Virus genome (UHGV): UHGV-0173986
Length of the DNA stretch: 46,299 bases
Reading direction: 5' to 3' (one strand)
Source: a virus
Part shown: positions 2,773 to 16,842 of the stretch, in pieces
Layout of the letters: each line of letters starts with the position of its first letter
Position numbering within the stretch: the first letter of the stretch is position 1
The notes under the pieces: generated by a model
What the model saw: only the letters and a program-made list of their open reading frames with translations
Told to the model about the DNA's origin: nothing
Databases searched by the model: none
Translations under genes and position numbers: made by a program

Positions 2773-3162
2773 GCCTCAGCCTCAGGGTTTCCTTTCTGCG
2801 CCAGCAAGTAACACAGCTGGCGTAGTCTCACCTCGAACCAGTTCAGGCGGGTCGCCTGGTTCCCGGTAGGTACTCGGGCAAAATCCTTCATAGTTATCTC
2901 CAGTTAACTCAGTATTAGGATGTGGTTTTGCAATGCGGCGCCGGGTGCCTCCCGGTGACGGCAGCCAGTTAACAACTACCGCCGACAACTTTTTCCCCAC
3001 AACGTGTGAATAACCGCCATGTTTACTTTTTTAACTGTGTCGCGTGCGCATAGCCGCATTCACCGCATTGCAAAACCTACTAGTCGTGATGCCTGTCTTT
3101 TCACCACTTCAGGCTCGGTGGTATTCTTGGCGCTCTCACACAGCCAAATAAAAGAGAGCAAA

Positions 3163-12971: not shown

Positions 12972-13364
12972 ATGACGCAAACCCCCGAAGTATCAAAATC
13001 CCATCAGACTGGTGCTCCTTCATCGAGCGCCGGTTTGCTTTCGTCTTCAAAACTAACTTTTCGCCAGCAGGAAGTTTTCGATCTGCTGGTGGCCTACATC
13101 AATCAGCATGGCTACCCACCTACGCTATCTGAGTTGGCCGATATGCTCGGCGTTAGCTCGTCTAATGCTGTCCTGTTGCATCTGCGTGCGTTAGAGAGAA
13201 AAAATTTTATAAAACTCTCTCGCCGTGTCTCAAGAGGAATTTCCATCGTCGGGCGAAAGGAGCCTATGCTCGCCGTGCAGCTGCTGCAGGAAATGATCGC
13301 TGAAGAACCCGGCGCGCGTGAAAGAGCGATTGAGTTTTTGCGACTGTTCGGTGATCAGCCATGA
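12972..13364 (+). CDS. LexA N-terminal DNA-binding-domain protein without the S24 peptidase domain (non-cleavable LexA paralogue)
   Basis: [66 protein letters not shown] aligns with LexA [66 protein letters not shown]. It is 130 aa and lacks the Ala-Gly cleavage site and Ser/Lys dyad region. GGAGAGA RBS. Confidence 0.7.
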   Translation: [130 protein letters not shown]

Positions 13365-13564
13365 AGAAAAGTTGGTTTTTACACGAGCAGCTTTCAGAGA
13401 CTGAGGCTACAGAGCTGGTGGAGCGATACCGTAAAAATAACTGTGTGGTTGAGAAGAGCTTATCCAGAGACTTTGCATCGTGGGAGATCCGCGTGTTGTT
13501 GCCGGAATCGAAGAAGCCGCCACGGATTGACAGAACCTACATACAGAAGATGTGGAGGGACTGA
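13361..13564 (+). CDS. Small hypothetical protein (67 aa), translationally coupled (ATGA/TGATG overlaps)
   Basis: ORF bridged by overlapping stop/start codons on both sides. Confidence 0.35.
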   Translation: MKKSWFLHEQLSETEATELVERYRKNNCVVEKSLSRDFASWEIRVLLPESKKPPRIDRTYIQKMWRD

Positions 13565-14595
13565 TGCGAGCTTTGCTTAACGTGGATATTGCACGCCATC
13601 TTGGAATTGTGCTGCTTAAGCCGGGTAGTGAATTAATGCCGTTATTCGGTGCCGGCCGAGTTCTTGTTGAAATGCCGCCGGCAAGCATGAAAAAGATACC
13701 CAGTGGACGTCTTCCTGATGCCCGGCAGCCGTTGCGGGATGATATGGGGATCAGACCTTTTTTCATGAAGAAGGCAGTTATCACTGCAGCTGGTGGGGTT
13801 AGTGCCCTCGAGTCATGGTTGCGTAGGCAGGTTAAAAACTGTCAGTGGACACATTCCGATTACCATCACCTTGAGCTCGTCCCGTTTCGCCATTCGACGG
13901 GTGTAATAATCGCATGCTGGCACTGTGATAATGAGCTGAAAAACCAAACAGAACAAACCCTCAATCAACTGGTAGGTGTTAACAACGCTGACTGGGTAAT
14001 CGACACTGCCCGCATCGCGCTTGGTCTGGACGCGCAGCGCTCATTGTCACTGGCGGAGCTATGCTGGTGGGCGGTAGGCGCCGGGATTGGCGATGAAATT
14101 ACAGAAGAAATGGCGCGCCGATCCCTGCGTATTAAAGGCGATGGCATTAAATCGGTTTACAGGGAGAGTGAGATTGTTCCGTCTGTACCGGCCACCAGTA
14201 TTCTTTCTCCCCGTCTCGAAAAAACAATCAAGCCAACGGCAATAACAACGCCGGGCAAACCTCTGGTTCCTGTGAACGTCGATCCTGTTGCTCCGGCGAC
14301 ACTATTCGCGAGACCTAAGCGGAGCCGATGGTTATCAGCTGACTTTATCTCATGGGTTAAAAAACAGCCGTGTATGTGCTGCGGGCAGCCTGCAGATGAT
14401 GCACACCATCTTATTGGCTGGGGGCAGGGCGGCGTAGGCACCAAGGCCAACGATATTTTTACGATCCCATTATGCCGCAAGCACCACCGTGCTTTGCACC
14501 ATGACCCTGCCGCTTTTGAGCGTGAATACGGCACCCAGCCGGTATTGATTATTAAATTGCTGGACCGGGCATACGCGCTCGGCGTTCTGGCGTAG
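13564..14595 (+). CDS. DUF968-domain protein (YdfU-like, lambdoid nin/late-regulation region)
   Basis: C-terminal Cys/His motif ...CMCCGQPADDAHHLIGWGQGGVGTKANDIFTIPLCRKHHRALHHDP typical of DUF968. It precedes the Q-like gene, as in Qin. Confidence 0.65.
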   Translation: MRALLNVDIARHLGIVLLKPGSELMPLFGAGRVLVEMPPASMKKIPSGRLPDARQPLRDDMGIRPFFMKKAVITAAGGVSALESWLRRQVKNCQWTHSDYHHLELVPFRHSTGVIIACWHCDNELKNQTEQTLNQLVGVNNADWVIDTARIALGLDAQRSLSLAELCWWAVGAGIGDEITEEMARRSLRIKGDGIKSVYRESEIVPSVPATSILSPRLEKTIKPTAITTPGKPLVPVNVDPVAPATLFARPKRSRWLSADFISWVKKQPCMCCGQPADDAHHLIGWGQGGVGTKANDIFTIPLCRKHHRALHHDPAAFEREYGTQPVLIIKLLDRAYALGVLA

Positions 14596-14611
14596 TAAGG
14601 AGAAGAACAGA

Positions 14612-15214
14612 ATGACACCACGTCAACGCCGTCTGCACCGTGCAGGATTAGAAACAGTGGCCGCCGTCCCGCGCAAAAGCTGGCTGGGCCGATTCACTCC
14701 CCTTAATGGTATTCAGTCCGCCTGGATAAAATCTCTGCTTACTGTTTGGGGGGAAGGGATGAGAGGAGGTGCAGCCCCGCGTAAACCATCAGGACATTCA
14801 TGCTGGCGAGGTATAAAGGGTGATCACTGGTCAGATAGAGCATTAGAGCGCTTTACGGCAGCAATCGAGCAGGCAAGGAGTGAAGGCTATCGCGGGCGGC
14901 AGGCACTAAGCAGGGCGCATGCCATTTTGTGGCCAAAACCTCCAACTGTTGCCATTGACGCTGCGATCACTGAGGATGATGTTGAATTTGTTGAACGATG
15001 TGTACTGGCGATATTTGAAACGGGTGATCCTGTTTATCTCGTTGGCGTTAACTATTACACCACCCGCAAAAAAATCTCAGACATAACACGGGAAATACAG
15101 CTGGTGGCTCCATGGTTAACAGACAGTGAGGCCCGGAAAAGAGTGCGCTGGTGCCTTGAAATATTCAGAGCAAAAGCTTTCCTTTCTGTTCATAAGGCGA
15201 TTCATGCGGATTAG
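14612..15214 (+). CDS. Candidate late-gene antiterminator (Q-like), assigned mainly by position
   Basis: 200-aa basic protein following DUF968 (as with ydfU-quuQ in Qin). A promoter plus short leader plus intrinsic terminator lie immediately downstream. I recall no direct motif match. Confidence 0.4.
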   Translation: MTPRQRRLHRAGLETVAAVPRKSWLGRFTPLNGIQSAWIKSLLTVWGEGMRGGAAPRKPSGHSCWRGIKGDHWSDRALERFTAAIEQARSEGYRGRQALSRAHAILWPKPPTVAIDAAITEDDVEFVERCVLAIFETGDPVYLVGVNYYTTRKKISDITREIQLVAPWLTDSEARKRVRWCLEIFRAKAFLSVHKAIHAD

Positions 15215-15242
15215 CAAAAAGTGCTATGTTGCCTTTTTGGTA

Positions 15243-15271
15243 TTGAAAATGGGCCAGAAAGTTAGATAATT
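15243..15271 (+). promoter_or_regulatory. Candidate late promoter (PR'-like): TTGAAA-17 nt-ATAATT
   Basis: TTGAAA at 15243-15248 and ATAATT at 15266-15271 with 17-nt spacing, about 30 nt after the Q-like stop. Confidence 0.4.
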
Positions 15272-15334
15272 CCTTCATGCTTGGCAGAGCTGCGCCACTC
15301 GGCAGCGACAAAAAGCGACAATCTGAATATAACG

Positions 15335-15361
15335 AAAACCCCGCCCGTGCGGGGTTTTTGC
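15335..15361 (+). terminator. Intrinsic terminator (tR'-like), about 65 nt downstream of the candidate late promoter; its symmetric A/T flanks could also terminate minus-strand transcripts
   Basis: aaaaCCCCGCccgtGCGGGGttttt. Confidence 0.7.
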
Positions 15362-15368
15362 TTTCCGG

Positions 15369-15422
15369 CGATACGACAGGGGTATTCGCGAGATGCGCTG
15401 CATCAATACCCCTGTCATATCG
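15369..15422. repeat. Long imperfect inverted repeat (18-bp arms, 17/18 complementary, 18-nt loop)
   Basis: cgatacgacaggggtatt ...cgcgagatgcgctgcatc... aatacccctgtcatatcg. Confidence 0.6.
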
Positions 15423-15457
15423 TCGTATTGCATACGCAATCTCACATGCTTCAGCAT

Positions 15458-15661
15458 TCACTGAGGATTTTTAGTGATTTTTTTGAAGATCTCTAGGGCT
15501 TCGGTTGTTAACTGATCATGTTCGCTAAAGTAACTGTCACATGCTGCCTGCTTTTGAGCAGGGGATAGATTAGGGTTGCTTGTTAATTCAGCAGTTTTAG
15601 CTGCTATTCCTGCCAAACGTTCAAAAATCTCTGAAATTCTTTGGTTATCAGTAGATAGCAT
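15458..15661 (-). CDS. Small hypothetical protein (67 aa)
   Basis: ATG preceded by a GAGGT RBS. It is the only minus-strand ORF in this region with a plausible RBS. Confidence 0.3.
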   Translation of the reverse strand: MLSTDNQRISEIFERLAGIAAKTAELTSNPNLSPAQKQAACDSYFSEHDQLTTEALEIFKKITKNPQ

Positions 15662-15837
15662 TTTACTTACCTCGTATTTACCTGATATCAGTGAGTGCTA
15701 CATTGAGTCAGGGCTTCGCAATAGCTTTAAGTATTAGAATGCATACAATTTAAGTGGGCGTTGTTGGCTTATATTATGGCAGAGGCGCTGGCGGTATGGT
15801 CAGATATTGACACTTTGAATGTTTGCATCATAAATTA

Positions 15838-15958
15838 TTGAGGTGGTGAATCCCCCTATGCGGAGGGGCGACCAGTCAGTTACAGAAACCTGTAAATGCA
15901 GCGCGGGCCATGCCGACTGGGGCATGCTCACCGGGAGGCACCCGGCACCACACTGTCA
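15838..15958 (+). ncRNA. Copy A of a roughly 120-nt conserved structured element (candidate sRNA or antitermination RNA)
   Basis: GGTGGTGAATCCCCCTATGCGGAGGGGCG ... CAGCGCG ... ACCGGGAGGCACCCGGCACCAC. Two GC hairpins (cccct-N6-agggg and ccggg-N5-cccgg). About 75% identical to copy B. Confidence 0.35.
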
Positions 15959-16112
15959 CTAAGCATATTGAATATTTCATAGTGGGTTTACTTTTGCGGT
16001 TGCCCTTCTATGTTTATAGAACGTAACGGCAAAAGTGAATGCTTCCTGGTAAATCGGTAGCTCGGACTATTAGGTGCACCTTCCTTTCGTTACAGCCTTG
16101 GTTGCCAATTTT

Positions 16113-16140
16113 CTTCCCGCTTCTCTGGCGGGTTTTTTTT
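16113..16140 (+). terminator. Intrinsic terminator between the two element copies
   Basis: cccgc-ttctctg-gcggg followed by TTTTTTTT. Confidence 0.65.
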
Positions 16141-16327
16141 ATTCATAATCTGCCCAAAAAAACATCAAAGCAAGGAAGGCGATGGATTCATTTGCAGGAA
16201 CTCCTTTCCCCTTCAACGGAGACAGGCTCAAAGCAATAAGAAGCGGAACAGAAGGATGCTTTGCGCCGAAAAATTAGGTCATAGCGACGCATGGCATTGA
16301 AGAGATGTTATTGAGATGTTAAGTTTT

Positions 16328-16478
16328 ATGGGTGGTGAATCCCCCTAGCGGAGGGGCGTAAACAGTTAGAAGCGAATCCTCAGCGCGAGTCACGGTGACT
16401 GACCAACGACTTACCGGGAAGCACCCGGCACCACCACTTCACCTCAAGCCCACGTTAACGCGTGGGCTGTTCTTTTCC
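16328..16478 (+). ncRNA. Copy B of the structured element with its own 3' intrinsic terminator (candidate ~150-nt sRNA unit about 150 bp upstream of the holin)
   Basis: GGGTGGTGAATCCCCCTAGCGGAGGGGCG ... CAGCGCG ... ACCGGGAAGCACCCGGCACCACC then AGCCCACGttaaCGTGGGCTgttctttt. Upstream ttattgaga/tttatg elements could be a promoter. Confidence 0.4.
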
Positions 16479-16626
16479 AGCGGATCTATTCAAAGGCTGC
16501 GCATTTGCGTGGCCTTTTTCATTTCAGGCTCACGGGAATCATCATCGATACGGCTCGTTGTTAAATCAGCCCGATGGGCCTGACCCCCTACACGCACAAA
16601 GCACCCCGTTAATCCGGAGGTGGAGT

Positions 16627-16842
16627 ATGTATCGAATGGACAAGCTAACAACAGGTATTGCCTACGGAACGTCCGCAGGTAACGCGGGGTTCTGGATGTT
16701 GCAATTGCTCGACAAAGTATCCCCATCCCAGTGGGCCGCTATTGGTGTTCTGGGAAGTCTGGTATTTGGCTTGCTGACATACCTGACGAATCTGTATTTC
16801 AAAATTAAAGAAGACCGGCGAAAAGCTGTGCGAGGTGAATAA
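16627..16842 (+). CDS. S: Class II holin of the phage-21 S21 (pinholin) family, dual-start motif
   Basis: [71 protein letters not shown] is near-identical in pattern to S21 ([68 protein letters not shown]). GGAGGTGGAG RBS. Confidence 0.9.

Follow-up and report, generated by a model that had tools for sequence, protein, structure and literature searches.

Several small RNAs of the prophage interval between Q and the lysis genes have been described, including lambda 6S, StxS, and IsrK; all end at an intrinsic terminator and some bind Hfq. Each of these late-leader RNAs is the product of PR′, whose transcript stops at tR′ immediately 3′ of Q. The put RNAs of the lambdoid phage HK022 are likewise promoter-proximal and structured, with GC-rich stem-loops; put elements, which have two stem-loops, are located in early operons and cause polymerase to pass terminators in cis. 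In addition, Hfq-binding sRNAs have been reported in pairs in the interval that separates the late promoter from the lysis genes in enterohemorrhagic Escherichia coli (EHEC) phages.

The prophage small-RNA family STnc100 (Rfam RF02076) also belongs to the late region; its genes, often paired, typically follow the late promoter (or stx) and precede the lysis genes. EDL933 has 11 STnc100 copies, which are transcribed in the lysogen and one of which is confirmed by Northern blotting, and relatives in lysogens are terminated RNAs of ∼160 to 210 nt (PMC5331693). In Salmonella LT2, RpoD is bound at STnc100 promoters (PMC10794520), and EcOnc27/sRNA103 of EHEC Stx2 phages is Hfq-bound, as determined by Hfq-CRAC (PMC7873438). 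sRNA103 affects fimZ by a mechanism that is unclear (PMC7873438), and no STnc100 member is known to have a proven direct target. Variants of the family have been linked statistically to haemolytic uraemic syndrome (PMC12711010). PasD1 and PasD2 of enteropathogenic E. coli are Hfq-dependent prophage sRNAs encoded beside a Q gene and a holin/lysozyme operon; their stability needs Hfq and they have many RIL-seq partners (PMC8550237), and they are reported to be STnc100 relatives (bioRxiv 10.64898/2026.05.13.724894), with structure and ancestry reportedly in common. Here, we describe two STnc100 elements, copies A and B, in virus genome UHGV-0173986, the whole 46,299-nt stretch of which is referred to as the window.

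Copies A and B are members of the STnc100 family

A sequence-only reading of this DNA had proposed that two diverged copies of an element lie at 15838 to 15958 (copy A) and 16328 to 16445 (copy B), and both were confirmed at these positions. Their similarity is real, with 91/129 columns identical in a global alignment (70.5%, or 82.7% over ungapped columns) and an alignment score of 126, compared with 39.8 ± 7.8 in 500 shuffles. The common blocks that had been picked out, GGTGGTGAATCCCCCTA(T)GCGGAGGGGCG and ACCGGGA(G/A)GCACCCGGCACCAC, are present in both copies, and both GC hairpins (CCCCT/AGGGG and CCGGG/CCCGG) are kept. The elements had been matched to no RNA family, but an Rfam/Infernal scan places both in RF02076 above the cutoff: full-length matches to the Rfam covariance model score 79.9 bits for copy A (E value, 1e-15) and 70.7 bits for copy B (3e-13), the curated gathering score of 47 bits being the threshold for membership. 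Our own covariance model, R1, gives scores of 102.9 and 87.7 bits, respectively. Of the identities suggested earlier, that of prophage sRNAs is thus the correct one, both copies being in RF02076 and their relatives being discrete Hfq-bound transcripts of lysogens.

The resemblance to STnc100 extends over the conserved 5′ and 3′ blocks, the closing helix, and the hairpins CCCCU..AGGGG and CCGGG AGGCA CCCGG, which occur in the family order in both copies. It also extends to location, with a Q-like gene upstream and a P21-type holin, a lysozyme, and a spanin downstream. There are nonetheless differences. The host lineage is Klebsiella-type for copies A and B, and Escherichia or Salmonella for STnc100; copy A lacks the nearby terminator of STnc100 and has a conserved ∼165-nt extension instead; and in copy B the P2 loop is 5 nt long, the P5 loop contains an A, and P3 is lacking. 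Both copies are ordinary in kind, because STnc100 is a catalogued gene that is often paired between the late-gene activator and the lysis genes; the family is known, the location is usual, the function is poorly defined, and a standard Rfam search suffices to name them.

The A+B pair recurs in related Klebsiella-type prophages: it occurs in eight IMG/VR contigs with a spacing of 460 to 490 nt, and at 97% identity in locus L093. The contig IMGVR_UViG_2609459938_000002 carries a 97%-identical prophage. A recent local duplication was considered as the origin of the pair and rejected, as A and B are only ∼70% identical. The copy B unit (16141 to 16480) is absent from two close relatives, L001 and L032, and copy B has no relative closer than ∼73% in phage and E. 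coli collections, while recurring in IMG/VR; from these comparisons, copy B looks like a mosaic acquisition of a diverged family member. Elsewhere among relatives there are arrays of two to five copies, and the three-copy arrays of E. coli include a variant with GNRA-type loops. At least 12 of 38 loci have a lysozyme homologue no more than ∼1 kb downstream, and the family element is also found in the leader of an early operon, downstream of stx2B, and beside tRNA genes.

Each copy has its own promoter and terminator signals

A sigma-70-like promoter is predicted for copy A at 15807 to 15836 on the plus strand (TTGACA-18-TAAATT; 10/12 matches in a promoter scan), with the −10 ending 6 nt before the closing helix and 8 nt before a conserved GGTG. 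The copy A core (15843 to 15951, plus strand), placed by RF02076, R1, a base-by-base helix check, and covariation, is followed by a 3′ extension (15952 to 16115, plus strand), recognized from the aligned extensions of relatives, and an intrinsic terminator, CCCGCTTCTCTGGCGGG TTTTTTTT (16116 to 16140, plus strand; terminator scan and helix check). This terminator is ∼165 nt 3′ of the core, a position kept in L001, L032, and other loci, and homology in related Klebsiella phages spans one unit from promoter to terminator, 15800 to 16140. The promoter and terminator positions predict a copy A RNA of ∼300 nt. Within the extension, a 30-nt block at 16045 to 16074 (CCTGGTAAATCGGTAGCTCGGACTATTAGG) is nearly invariant among relatives with differing flanks; among the 12 sequences aligned out of 21 distinct extensions, it is identical save for two variable positions near its 3′ end, and it is a candidate effector region. 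For a possible second structured domain in the extension, covariation in the consensus fold is slight (covariation term of −0.22 kcal/mol).

The copy B promoter (TTGAAG-17-TAAGTT; 16297 to 16325, plus strand) has a TG one base 5′ of the −10. In the A-B alignment, every column of it matches up with one of the copy A promoter, but it is under the scan threshold and thus is weaker, and its −10 (TAAGTT) is weak, with 3/6 matches. The copy B core (16331 to 16435, plus strand; RF02076, R1, minimum-free-energy fold, and helix check) is followed by a tail, ACTTCACCTCA, and an intrinsic terminator, AGCCCACGTTAACGCGTGGGCT, with a T run (16436 to 16476, plus strand). The single-stranded tail is 11 nt and the predicted RNA is ∼145 nt. 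The sequence-only reading had credited only copy B with a promoter and terminator. Those of copy B hold up, with the terminator hairpin at 16447 to 16468 followed by the T run, but copy A has both too, and its promoter is the better one.

These signals are present at both copies in a register that is kept among relatives. Of 94 distinct upstream regions of relatives, 49 score at least 8/12 promoter matches (shuffles, 13 ± 3), and the −10 ends 8 nt before GGTG in 28 of these 49. The distance from core to terminator varies greatly in the family (median, 28 nt; 10th to 90th percentile, 20 to 163 nt), and the terminator sequences are unrelated between members.

The common core is a five-helix fold with a pseudoknot

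The core common to the two copies folds into five helices and a pseudoknot that covariation supports, as tested on ∼70 distinct relatives across Enterobacterales. In copy A, the helices are P1 (15843-48/15946-51), P2 (15853-57/15864-68), P3 (15880-85/15890-95), P4 (15905-13/15922-29), and P5 (15931-35/15941-45), and the pseudoknot pairs 15872-77 (CCAGTC) with 15915-20 (GACTGG). Copy B has P1 (16331-37/16429-35), P2 (16342-46/16352-56), no clear P3, P4 (16387-91/16408-12 plus 16394-95/16403-04), and P5 (16414-18/16424-28), with a pseudoknot between 16363-68 (CAGTTA) and 16396-401 (TGACTG); its minimum-free-energy fold gives P1, P4, P5, and the terminator (z = −3.4).

Covariation across homologous prophages, to which the sequence-only reading had pointed as a check, supports the pairings of P1, P4, and the pseudoknot. 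P1 and the base of P4 covary, with 96% of cells paired in 35 relatives versus 44 to 52% when the 3′ partner is slid, and the observed covariation is reached in 0/500 shuffles. At pair 5 of P1, U-A (88) alternates with C-G (6), and at pair 6, G-C (54) alternates with A-U (37). Compensatory changes in P2 and P5 are seen in divergent copies (CUCCU/AGGAG, CCUGU/GCAGG, UCGGG/CCCGA, and CCUGG/CCAGG). For the pseudoknot, the linker after P2 is 2 to 5 nt, such that only 19 of 82 alignment rows share one register; with so few rows in register in the MAFFT and model-fitted alignments, an alignment-free partner-permutation test was used instead of column counts. Over 66 distinct strand combinations, the best helix has a mean of 6.42 for strands of the same molecule and 4.91 ± 0.14 for permuted partners (z = 10.8; 0/5000), and a related test yielded 48 different best-helix sequence pairs. 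With a fixed register, in a subset picked by a rule on the 5′ strand only, there are 5.00/6 pairs versus 4.40 ± 0.18 permuted (1/5000), and the third pair is A-U in eight sequences and G-C in seven. RNAfold was rejected as a means of delimiting the P4 loop, since several sequences, including those of copy B's type, were misfolded and gave false negatives. We found no published description of the STnc100 pseudoknot, and it is absent from the structure line printed for RF02076; covariance models cannot represent pseudoknots, and the curators may annotate it all the same.

The most conserved parts of the core are helices, loops, and the pseudoknot rather than a single-stranded seed, an observation that speaks against an sRNA reading. 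Such a pattern is not typical of a simple base-pairing sRNA and suits a module that binds a protein or ligand just as well.

A separate late promoter candidate lies directly after Q

The Q-like open reading frame (ORF; 14612 to 15214) matches phrog_753, "anti-termination protein Q-like" (E value, 1.8e-54). Directly 3′ of it is a promoter-like site (TTGAAA-16-GATAAT; 15243 to 15270, plus strand; 10/12 matches), which is not part of the repeated element and is the best candidate for the late promoter PR′. A strong GC hairpin followed by Ts (CCCCGCCCGTGCGGGG TTTTT; 15335 to 15362, plus strand; terminator scan) is a candidate tR′ that would end a late-leader RNA of ∼85 nt; the only isrK-like match here is weak, at 18 bits, and is subthreshold. 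The first gene 3′ of copies A and B is a holin of the phage 21 S type (16627 to 16842, plus strand; Pfam PF04971; E value, 5.9e-35); a lysozyme (PF00959) comes next, and then an Rz-like spanin. A terminator-like hairpin between copy B and the holin (16492 to 16525, plus strand; terminator scan) is part of a conserved lysis-cassette leader and accompanies the holin even without copy B; in L001 it comes immediately 3′ of a lone A-type unit. Where relatives share this Q, it is followed by one unit or by different cargo.

A third copy of the fold corresponds to the dicF-dicB spacer

Copy C, a third and divergent copy of the fold, is present at 2924 to 3077 on the minus strand (R1, 41.9 bits; E value, 2.6e-8); its score against Rfam STnc100, 34.6 bits, is under the cutoff of 47 for family membership. 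It has a 17-bp P1 (3077-3061/2940-2924), a P2 replaced by TGCG/CGCA (3058-55/3048-45), a P4 (2983-76/2964-57), the same P5 as copies A and B (2955-51/2945-41), and a pseudoknot of CAGTTAA (3037-31) with TTAACTG (2972-66). Copy C has no terminator, and is followed by a Shine-Dalgarno (SD) sequence and a 40-amino-acid (aa) ORF. As with the pseudoknotted five-helix fold and the recurrence of the A+B pair, it adds to what had been read from the sequence previously.

Copy C is homologous to the spacer that separates dicF from dicB in the Qin/mEp460 dicBF operon of E. coli and is at the equivalent position, both being in the early-left operon before a small ORF and a YdfD-like gene. The spacer has the copy C fold, with a long P1, a P5 with an AGGCA loop, and a CAGUUAA/UUAACUG pseudoknot, and through copy C the likeness extends to copies A and B. 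In contrast to these, the spacer is an internal leader without its own promoter or terminator and its P2 sequence differs; the spacer does not reach the Rfam cutoff (40.1 and 34.6 bits). A paper on dicBF makes no mention of a structure here. As copy C and the spacer are leaders without a terminator of their own, the core appears to have a role independent of a free-standing sRNA.

Discussion

We consider it probable that copies A and B are separate STnc100-family sRNA genes that act in trans, are transcribed from their own promoters, and are subject to Q read-through in lytic growth. The genes would be part of a cargo ("moron") stretch that, in a Klebsiella-type lambdoid prophage, separates the lysis cassette from the Q-dependent late promoter, each gene with a sigma-70-type promoter from which the transcript would start at the 5′ strand of the closing helix P1. 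The first 105 to 110 nt would form a compact core of P1, an invariant P2, an optional and variable P3, P4, and an invariant P5 placed directly against the P1 3′ strand, with the fold locked by pairing of the strand just after P2 with the P4 loop; a single-stranded tail of 11 nt (B) or ∼165 nt (A) and an intrinsic terminator would follow. In the lysogen, the terminators would stop host RNA polymerase to give products of ∼300 nt (A) and ∼145 nt (B), and in lytic growth Q-modified polymerase from PR′ would pass all of the terminators into the holin gene. By analogy with characterized relatives, the RNAs would bind Hfq via the U tail and terminator, and host or phage mRNAs would be their targets in trans; for this organism, we infer the transcript ends, Hfq binding, and trans-acting base pairing. 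STnc100 relatives have RpoD-bound promoters and Hfq-bound, Northern-verified RNAs, and PasD1 and PasD2 are similar to copies A and B by description, although the PasD copies are reported to be far apart in the genome and copies A and B are in tandem.

A different explanation, which we regard as unlikely but deserving some weight, is that the pseudoknotted core is itself the functional unit and binds a protein or ligand, acting as a decoy or sponge, a tRNA-like mimic, or a sensor, with Hfq being secondary and the tandem or multicopy arrangement serving dosage. The core is a covariation-supported five-helix structure with a pseudoknot, ∼50 nt of its helices, loops, and junctions are invariant from Pantoea and Erwinia to Klebsiella and Escherichia while the rest varies, there are arrays of two to five copies and 11 copies in EDL933, and the fold is reused as a leader before dicB-like genes. 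However, it has no known binding partner, and relatives form many Hfq-dependent RNA-RNA chimeras (PMC8550237). As judged from the sequence, P5 abuts the P1 3′ strand without a spacer, like a tRNA T arm on the acceptor stem, but tRNA mimicry was rejected: ARAGORN finds no tRNA-like gene in the window, and there is no RF00005 match at E values up to 10 in 15200 to 16700, with true tRNAs being detected beside relatives. A riboswitch-type switch was also rejected, although the core is aptamer-like. The antiterminator idea arises from E. coli members in which the terminator stem resembles P2 (CGGAGGGGC), which is not so in A, B, or most others; moreover, there is no riboswitch family match at E values up to 10 (15200 to 16700), and a core-to-terminator distance ranging from ∼12 to >160 nt, with no conserved alternative pairing between core and downstream terminator when checked by eye, argues against an expression platform.

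It is very improbable that the copies act in cis on the late transcript, either by put/qut-like antitermination or by directing the processing or stability of the lysis mRNA. Both point the same way as the late operon and occupy the interval from Q to the holin, many relatives have a downstream lysis cassette that is likewise co-oriented, and copy C and the dicB spacer establish that leader-type use exists. However, each unit has its own predicted fixed-register promoter and terminator, the accumulation of terminated relatives in lysogens (PMC5331693) is the reverse of the outcome expected from a cis antiterminator, and constitutive read-through into the holin would presumably be lethal. L001 and L032 have the same Q and the same holin with one unit only, indicating that copy B is dispensable for late expression. 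The sequence-only reading had offered a put/qut-like antitermination RNA or a late-leader unit, but the region from 15243 to 15362 is the better PR′/tR′ candidate and fits the role of the late-leader RNAs, whereas copies A and B are predicted to begin 570 and 1060 nt further downstream from their own promoters and have no Rfam similarity to isrK (15 to 18 bits versus a cutoff of 50); the element's occurrence downstream of stx2B, near tRNAs, and in an early-operon leader also argues against both roles. Compared by features with put, the STnc100 relatives are terminated, have five helices and a pseudoknot, and are in the late region. The copy B tail can form 9 bp with the holin SD region on paper (CUUCACCUC, 16437-45, with GAGGUGGAG, 16618-26), but such a holin lock was rejected as chance: tails of 68 relatives do not prefer their own downstream start regions (−13.3 versus −14.1 ± 0.3 kcal/mol permuted), and 4935/5000 permutations are at least as good as observed. 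An antisense partner like AgvB/AsxR was rejected too, there being no minus-strand promoter-like site in 15150 to 16700 and no match to RF02702 or RF02703. We give almost no credence to the similarity reflecting something other than functional RNA, whether a duplicated coding remnant or a DNA-level repeat (a protein-binding site or a recombination scar, for example). Short ORFs do overlap the cores, and typical members all have the same P2 and P5 stem sequences, as could be the case for a DNA site. However, the earlier statement that no ORF explains the conservation is borne out, as the only ORFs over the cores are ≤45 aa, lack ribosome-binding sites, and do not keep frame; the A-B gap runs of 1, 1, 1, 2, 4, and 7 nt are not multiples of three and maintain no reading frame. 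STnc100 family members are transcribed, and the compensatory changes in P1, P4, the pseudoknot, and P2 and P5 of divergent copies make sense only at the RNA level; the covariation already contradicts this explanation.

The STnc100 family is worth attention, being among the most abundant EHEC prophage RNAs and adjoining stx2 with no established target or mechanism, and the helix map and pseudoknot provide a frame for reading family variants and designing mutants. The dicF-dicB link suggests that the fold has a role beyond free-standing sRNAs. We raise, as an unlikely possibility, that the STnc100 core is a discrete pseudoknotted five-helix RNA domain with its own function, which lambdoid phages set before host-dangerous genes. 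If so, a single prophage would use this domain twice in promoter-and-terminator units before the holin and once as a dicB-type operon leader, the same domain would sit unrecognized between dicF and dicB in E. coli, and the Hfq-dependent "sRNA" behavior would be just one output of a domain whose functions could include protein binding, ligand binding, or a processing signal.

Identification of the Q-holin elements

The interval of ~1.4 kb between the Q-like antiterminator gene (14612-15214; phrog_753, E 1.8e-54) and the phage-21-type holin gene (16627-16842; PF04971) contains two related elements, copies A and B. Alignment of 15838-15958 with 16328-16445 gives 91 identities in 129 columns and a score of 126, against 39.8 ± 7.8 for shuffles, confirming the sequence-only reading that two diverged copies lie here. 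Its view that no ORF underlies the conservation also holds, as gap runs of 1, 1, 1, 2, 4, and 7 nt leave no reading frame intact across the copies, and an ORF scan of the plus strand of the interval found no convincing protein gene. That reading could match the elements to no RNA family and called for an Rfam scan; at curated thresholds (cut-off, 47 bits), the whole window has exactly two matches, both to RF02076 (STnc100), at 15810-16015 (copy A, 79.9 bits) and 16303-16474 (copy B, 70.7 bits). A permissive Rfam scan of the interval revealed nothing credible beyond STnc100, and ARAGORN found no tRNA in the window.

STnc100 is a curated family of sRNAs from enterobacterial prophages, so these elements are a Klebsiella-lineage instance of a known family at its usual site; their identity is secure, and it is the prophage sRNA option among those initially offered that stands. 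Escherichia coli O157:H7 EDL933 has 11 STnc100 copies that are transcribed in the lysogen, one of them Northern-verified (PMC5331693), and in Salmonella LT2 the STnc100 promoters are bound by RpoD (PMC10794520). The Hfq-bound sRNA EcOnc27/sRNA103 overlaps the copy that lies immediately 3' of stx2B, and clinical outcome has been associated with variants in this copy (PMC12711010). STnc100 is also present in outer-membrane vesicles (PMC12370729), and the Hfq-dependent EPEC sRNAs PasD1 and PasD2 have been tied to it by structure and synteny (2026 preprint, bioRxiv 10.64898/2026.05.13.724894).

A conserved fold with a pseudoknot

Relatives were gathered with an exact-match pattern on two conserved blocks, yielding 37 loci from one-genome-per-species bacterial assemblies (among them Klebsiella, Raoultella, Kosakonia, Enterobacter, Citrobacter, Escherichia, Superficieibacter, Pantoea, and Erwinia) and 119 IMG/VR loci, with 73 distinct cores in all. 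Across an alignment of 35 sequences, pairing in the nested helices stands at 96%, compared to 44 to 52% when the 3' partners are slid, and none of 500 shuffles reaches the observed covariation. Pairs in the closing helix P1 change from U-A to C-G and from G-C to A-U, and each of the four basal P4 pairs is changed on both sides. The invariance of hairpins P2 and P5 in the gathered set is built in by the search pattern, but a covariance model derived from that set recovers divergent copies with compensatory changes in both hairpins (CUCCU/AGGAG, CCUGU/GCAGG, and UCGGG/CCCGA), and a dicB-type element has a further one (CCUGG/CCAGG).

In nearly every member, the P4 loop is complementary to the strand immediately following P2, with sequences that are very different between members. 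The pairs are CCAGUC/GACUGG in copy A and CAGUUA/UGACUG in copy B, and in other members include AAGUCACA/UGUGACUU, AAGACAGG/UCUGUCUU, ACUGGAUA/UAUCCAGU, CCAGGUCG/UGACCUGG, CAACUA/UAGUUG, and GUUCCAGAA/UUCUGGAGC. In an alignment-free test on 66 distinct combinations, the mean for the best helix is 6.42 within the same molecule, compared to 4.91 ± 0.14 with partners permuted (z = 10.8; 0 of 5,000 permutations). In a subset with one fixed register, selected by a rule that considered only the 5' strand, 5.00 of 6 pairs form versus 4.40 ± 0.18 (1 of 5,000), and the third pair alternates between A-U and G-C. The structure line of the Rfam STnc100 model lacks this pseudoknot, and the preprint comparing PasD with STnc100, which used RNAalifold, does not mention it; it may be annotated elsewhere.

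Transcription units and neighboring features

Copy A is preceded by the sigma-70-like promoter TTGACA-18-TAAATT (15807-15836, plus strand; 10/12 matches), and copy B by TTGAAG-17-TAAGTT with an upstream TG, also on the plus strand and in alignment columns shared with the copy A promoter. Promoters with at least 8/12 matches occur in 49 of 94 distinct upstream regions of relatives (13 ± 3 in shuffles), and in 28 of these 49 the -10 ends 8 nt before a conserved GGTG; transcription should therefore start at the closing helix. Predicted plus-strand terminators follow at 16116-16140 (copy A) and 16447-16476 (copy B), and a further plus-strand hairpin (16492-16525) travels with the holin. The core-to-terminator distance has a median of 28 nt among 139 distinct relatives; copy B is typical at 11 nt, and copy A is among the longer ones at about 165 nt. 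The copy A 3' extension includes a 30-nt block, CCTGGTAAATCGGTAGCTCGGACTATTAGG (16045-16074), that is nearly invariant in 21 distinct extensions with strongly different flanks; this block may serve as the effector (seed) region or form a second structured module.

Immediately past the Q-like gene lie a promoter-like site, TTGAAA-16-GATAAT (15243-15270), and a strong bidirectional hairpin with a T run (15335-15362), both on the plus strand. This is a better PR'/tR' candidate than the repeated elements, which the sequence-only reading had offered as possible late-leader units, and 15243-15362 is likely, from its signals, to be a PR'/tR' unit whose short leader RNA would measure about 85 nt; an isrK-like match to it is weak (18 bits). 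Just past the candidate tR' is a 28-nt inverted repeat (15359-15432; 82% complementary, arms 18 nt apart). A 67-aa minus-strand ORF (15458-15661) between the late leader and copy A has no match in Pfam or PHROG and is kept at 98.5% in Klebsiella pneumoniae ATCC 13883. Between the copy A terminator and copy B promoter, a 31-aa ORF (16182-16277) without a family match has its ATG 2 nt after a good ribosome-binding site (AAGGAAGG). The single-stranded tail of copy B, CUUCACCUC (16437-16445), could pair over 9 bp, one of them G-U, with the Shine-Dalgarno region of the holin gene, GAGGUGGAG (16618-16626), and a family-wide test showed no enrichment of such pairing.

Origin and arrangement of the copies

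The closest DNA matches of the window are Klebsiella temperate phages. K. pneumoniae ATCC 13883 (L032) is 96.7% identical over 13000-16154 and diverges beyond, Klebsiella phage ST846-OXA48phi9.1 (L001) has one A-type unit with the holin leader immediately behind it, and the IMG/VR contig IMGVR_UViG_2609459938_000002 (L093) is 97.4% identical over both copies. A B-specific 29-mer is present in ten IMG/VR contigs, eight of which have an A-type copy 460 to 490 nt upstream, and neither the GenBank phage collection nor that of complete E. coli genomes has a relative of copy B closer than about 73%. On these comparisons, the pair is best read as a lineage feature assembled by mosaic exchange, and not as a fresh local duplication. 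Enterobacterial STnc100 elements also occur in a 1.6-kb contig of a MAG labelled Mucilaginibacter (core identical to that of copy A, Q fragment 99% identical; L011) and a 0.9-kb Xanthomonas pisi contig (L035), and are probably contamination of those assemblies.

Tandem copies are normal for STnc100: at the Rfam threshold there are two in loci L043, L017, L025, and L093, three in L007, and four in L012, and our covariance model adds weaker copies, giving up to five in Superficieibacter loci. Arrays of three to five STnc100-type elements are seen in Superficieibacter (L006, L030, and L012) and Escherichia (L043, L017, L049, L061, and L073), the latter ordered as three tRNA genes, then two full copies flanking a weak variant. 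This variant has a different P2 sequence, a GAAA P5 loop, and, in L017, also a GNRA-type P2 loop (GGAA), and matches no Rfam family at threshold. In Phytobacter and Pantoea-type loci, same-strand tRNA genes (Arg-UCU and Thr-UGU) lie within about 50 nt of the STnc100 terminator (L022, 2241-2317; L027, 1321-1396; L028, 5748-5823; L029, 6389-6464).

Proposed behavior of the RNAs

From the relatives, we infer that in the lysogen RNA synthesis on each unit would start at that unit's own promoter and end at its own terminator. The RNA would have a rigid pseudoknotted 5' domain starting at +1, then a tail and a U-rich terminator suited to Hfq, and would act in trans; after induction, Q-modified polymerase would pass all of the terminators into the lysis genes. 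Two other explanations, that the elements act in cis as put/qut-like antitermination signals on the late transcript, or that their similarity has a coding or DNA-level origin, are disfavored by the promoter and terminator signals of the elements themselves, the accumulation of relatives as terminated RNAs, the dispensability of copy B in close relatives, and covariation that makes sense only at the RNA level. The structured core is also unusually conserved and is reused as a leader, which allows for a second reading, considered rather unlikely, in which it would be a binding or processing module in its own right.

A related structure upstream of dicB

A third, divergent element in the window (copy C; minus strand, 2924-3077) matches our model at 2929-3071 with 41.9 bits (E 2.6e-8). 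It scores 34.6 bits against Rfam STnc100, below the cut-off, and standard annotation would therefore miss it. In copy C, P1 spans 17 bp and the pseudoknot 7 bp, the P2 hairpin is a different one, P5 is the same as in copies A and B, and there is no terminator. Directly downstream come a Shine-Dalgarno sequence with a 40-aa ORF (phrog_22279), followed by a YdfD-like gene (DUF1482) and an Rrf2 regulator, and this whole cluster lies downstream of a cI-like repressor.

The DNA relatives of copy C adjoin dicB. In Escherichia phage mEp460_ev081 (L158), an element at 1495-1640 sits in the spacer that separates DicF (RF00039, 76.7 bits) from the start codon of dicB, scoring 40.1 bits with STnc100 and 44.9 bits with our model, and this spacer is predicted to adopt the five-helix pseudoknotted fold as well. 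No structure at this site is mentioned in a recent study on how dicBF is regulated. The family and its location are known, and the interest lies in what STnc100 does, in the pseudoknot, and in the connection to the dicB leader.
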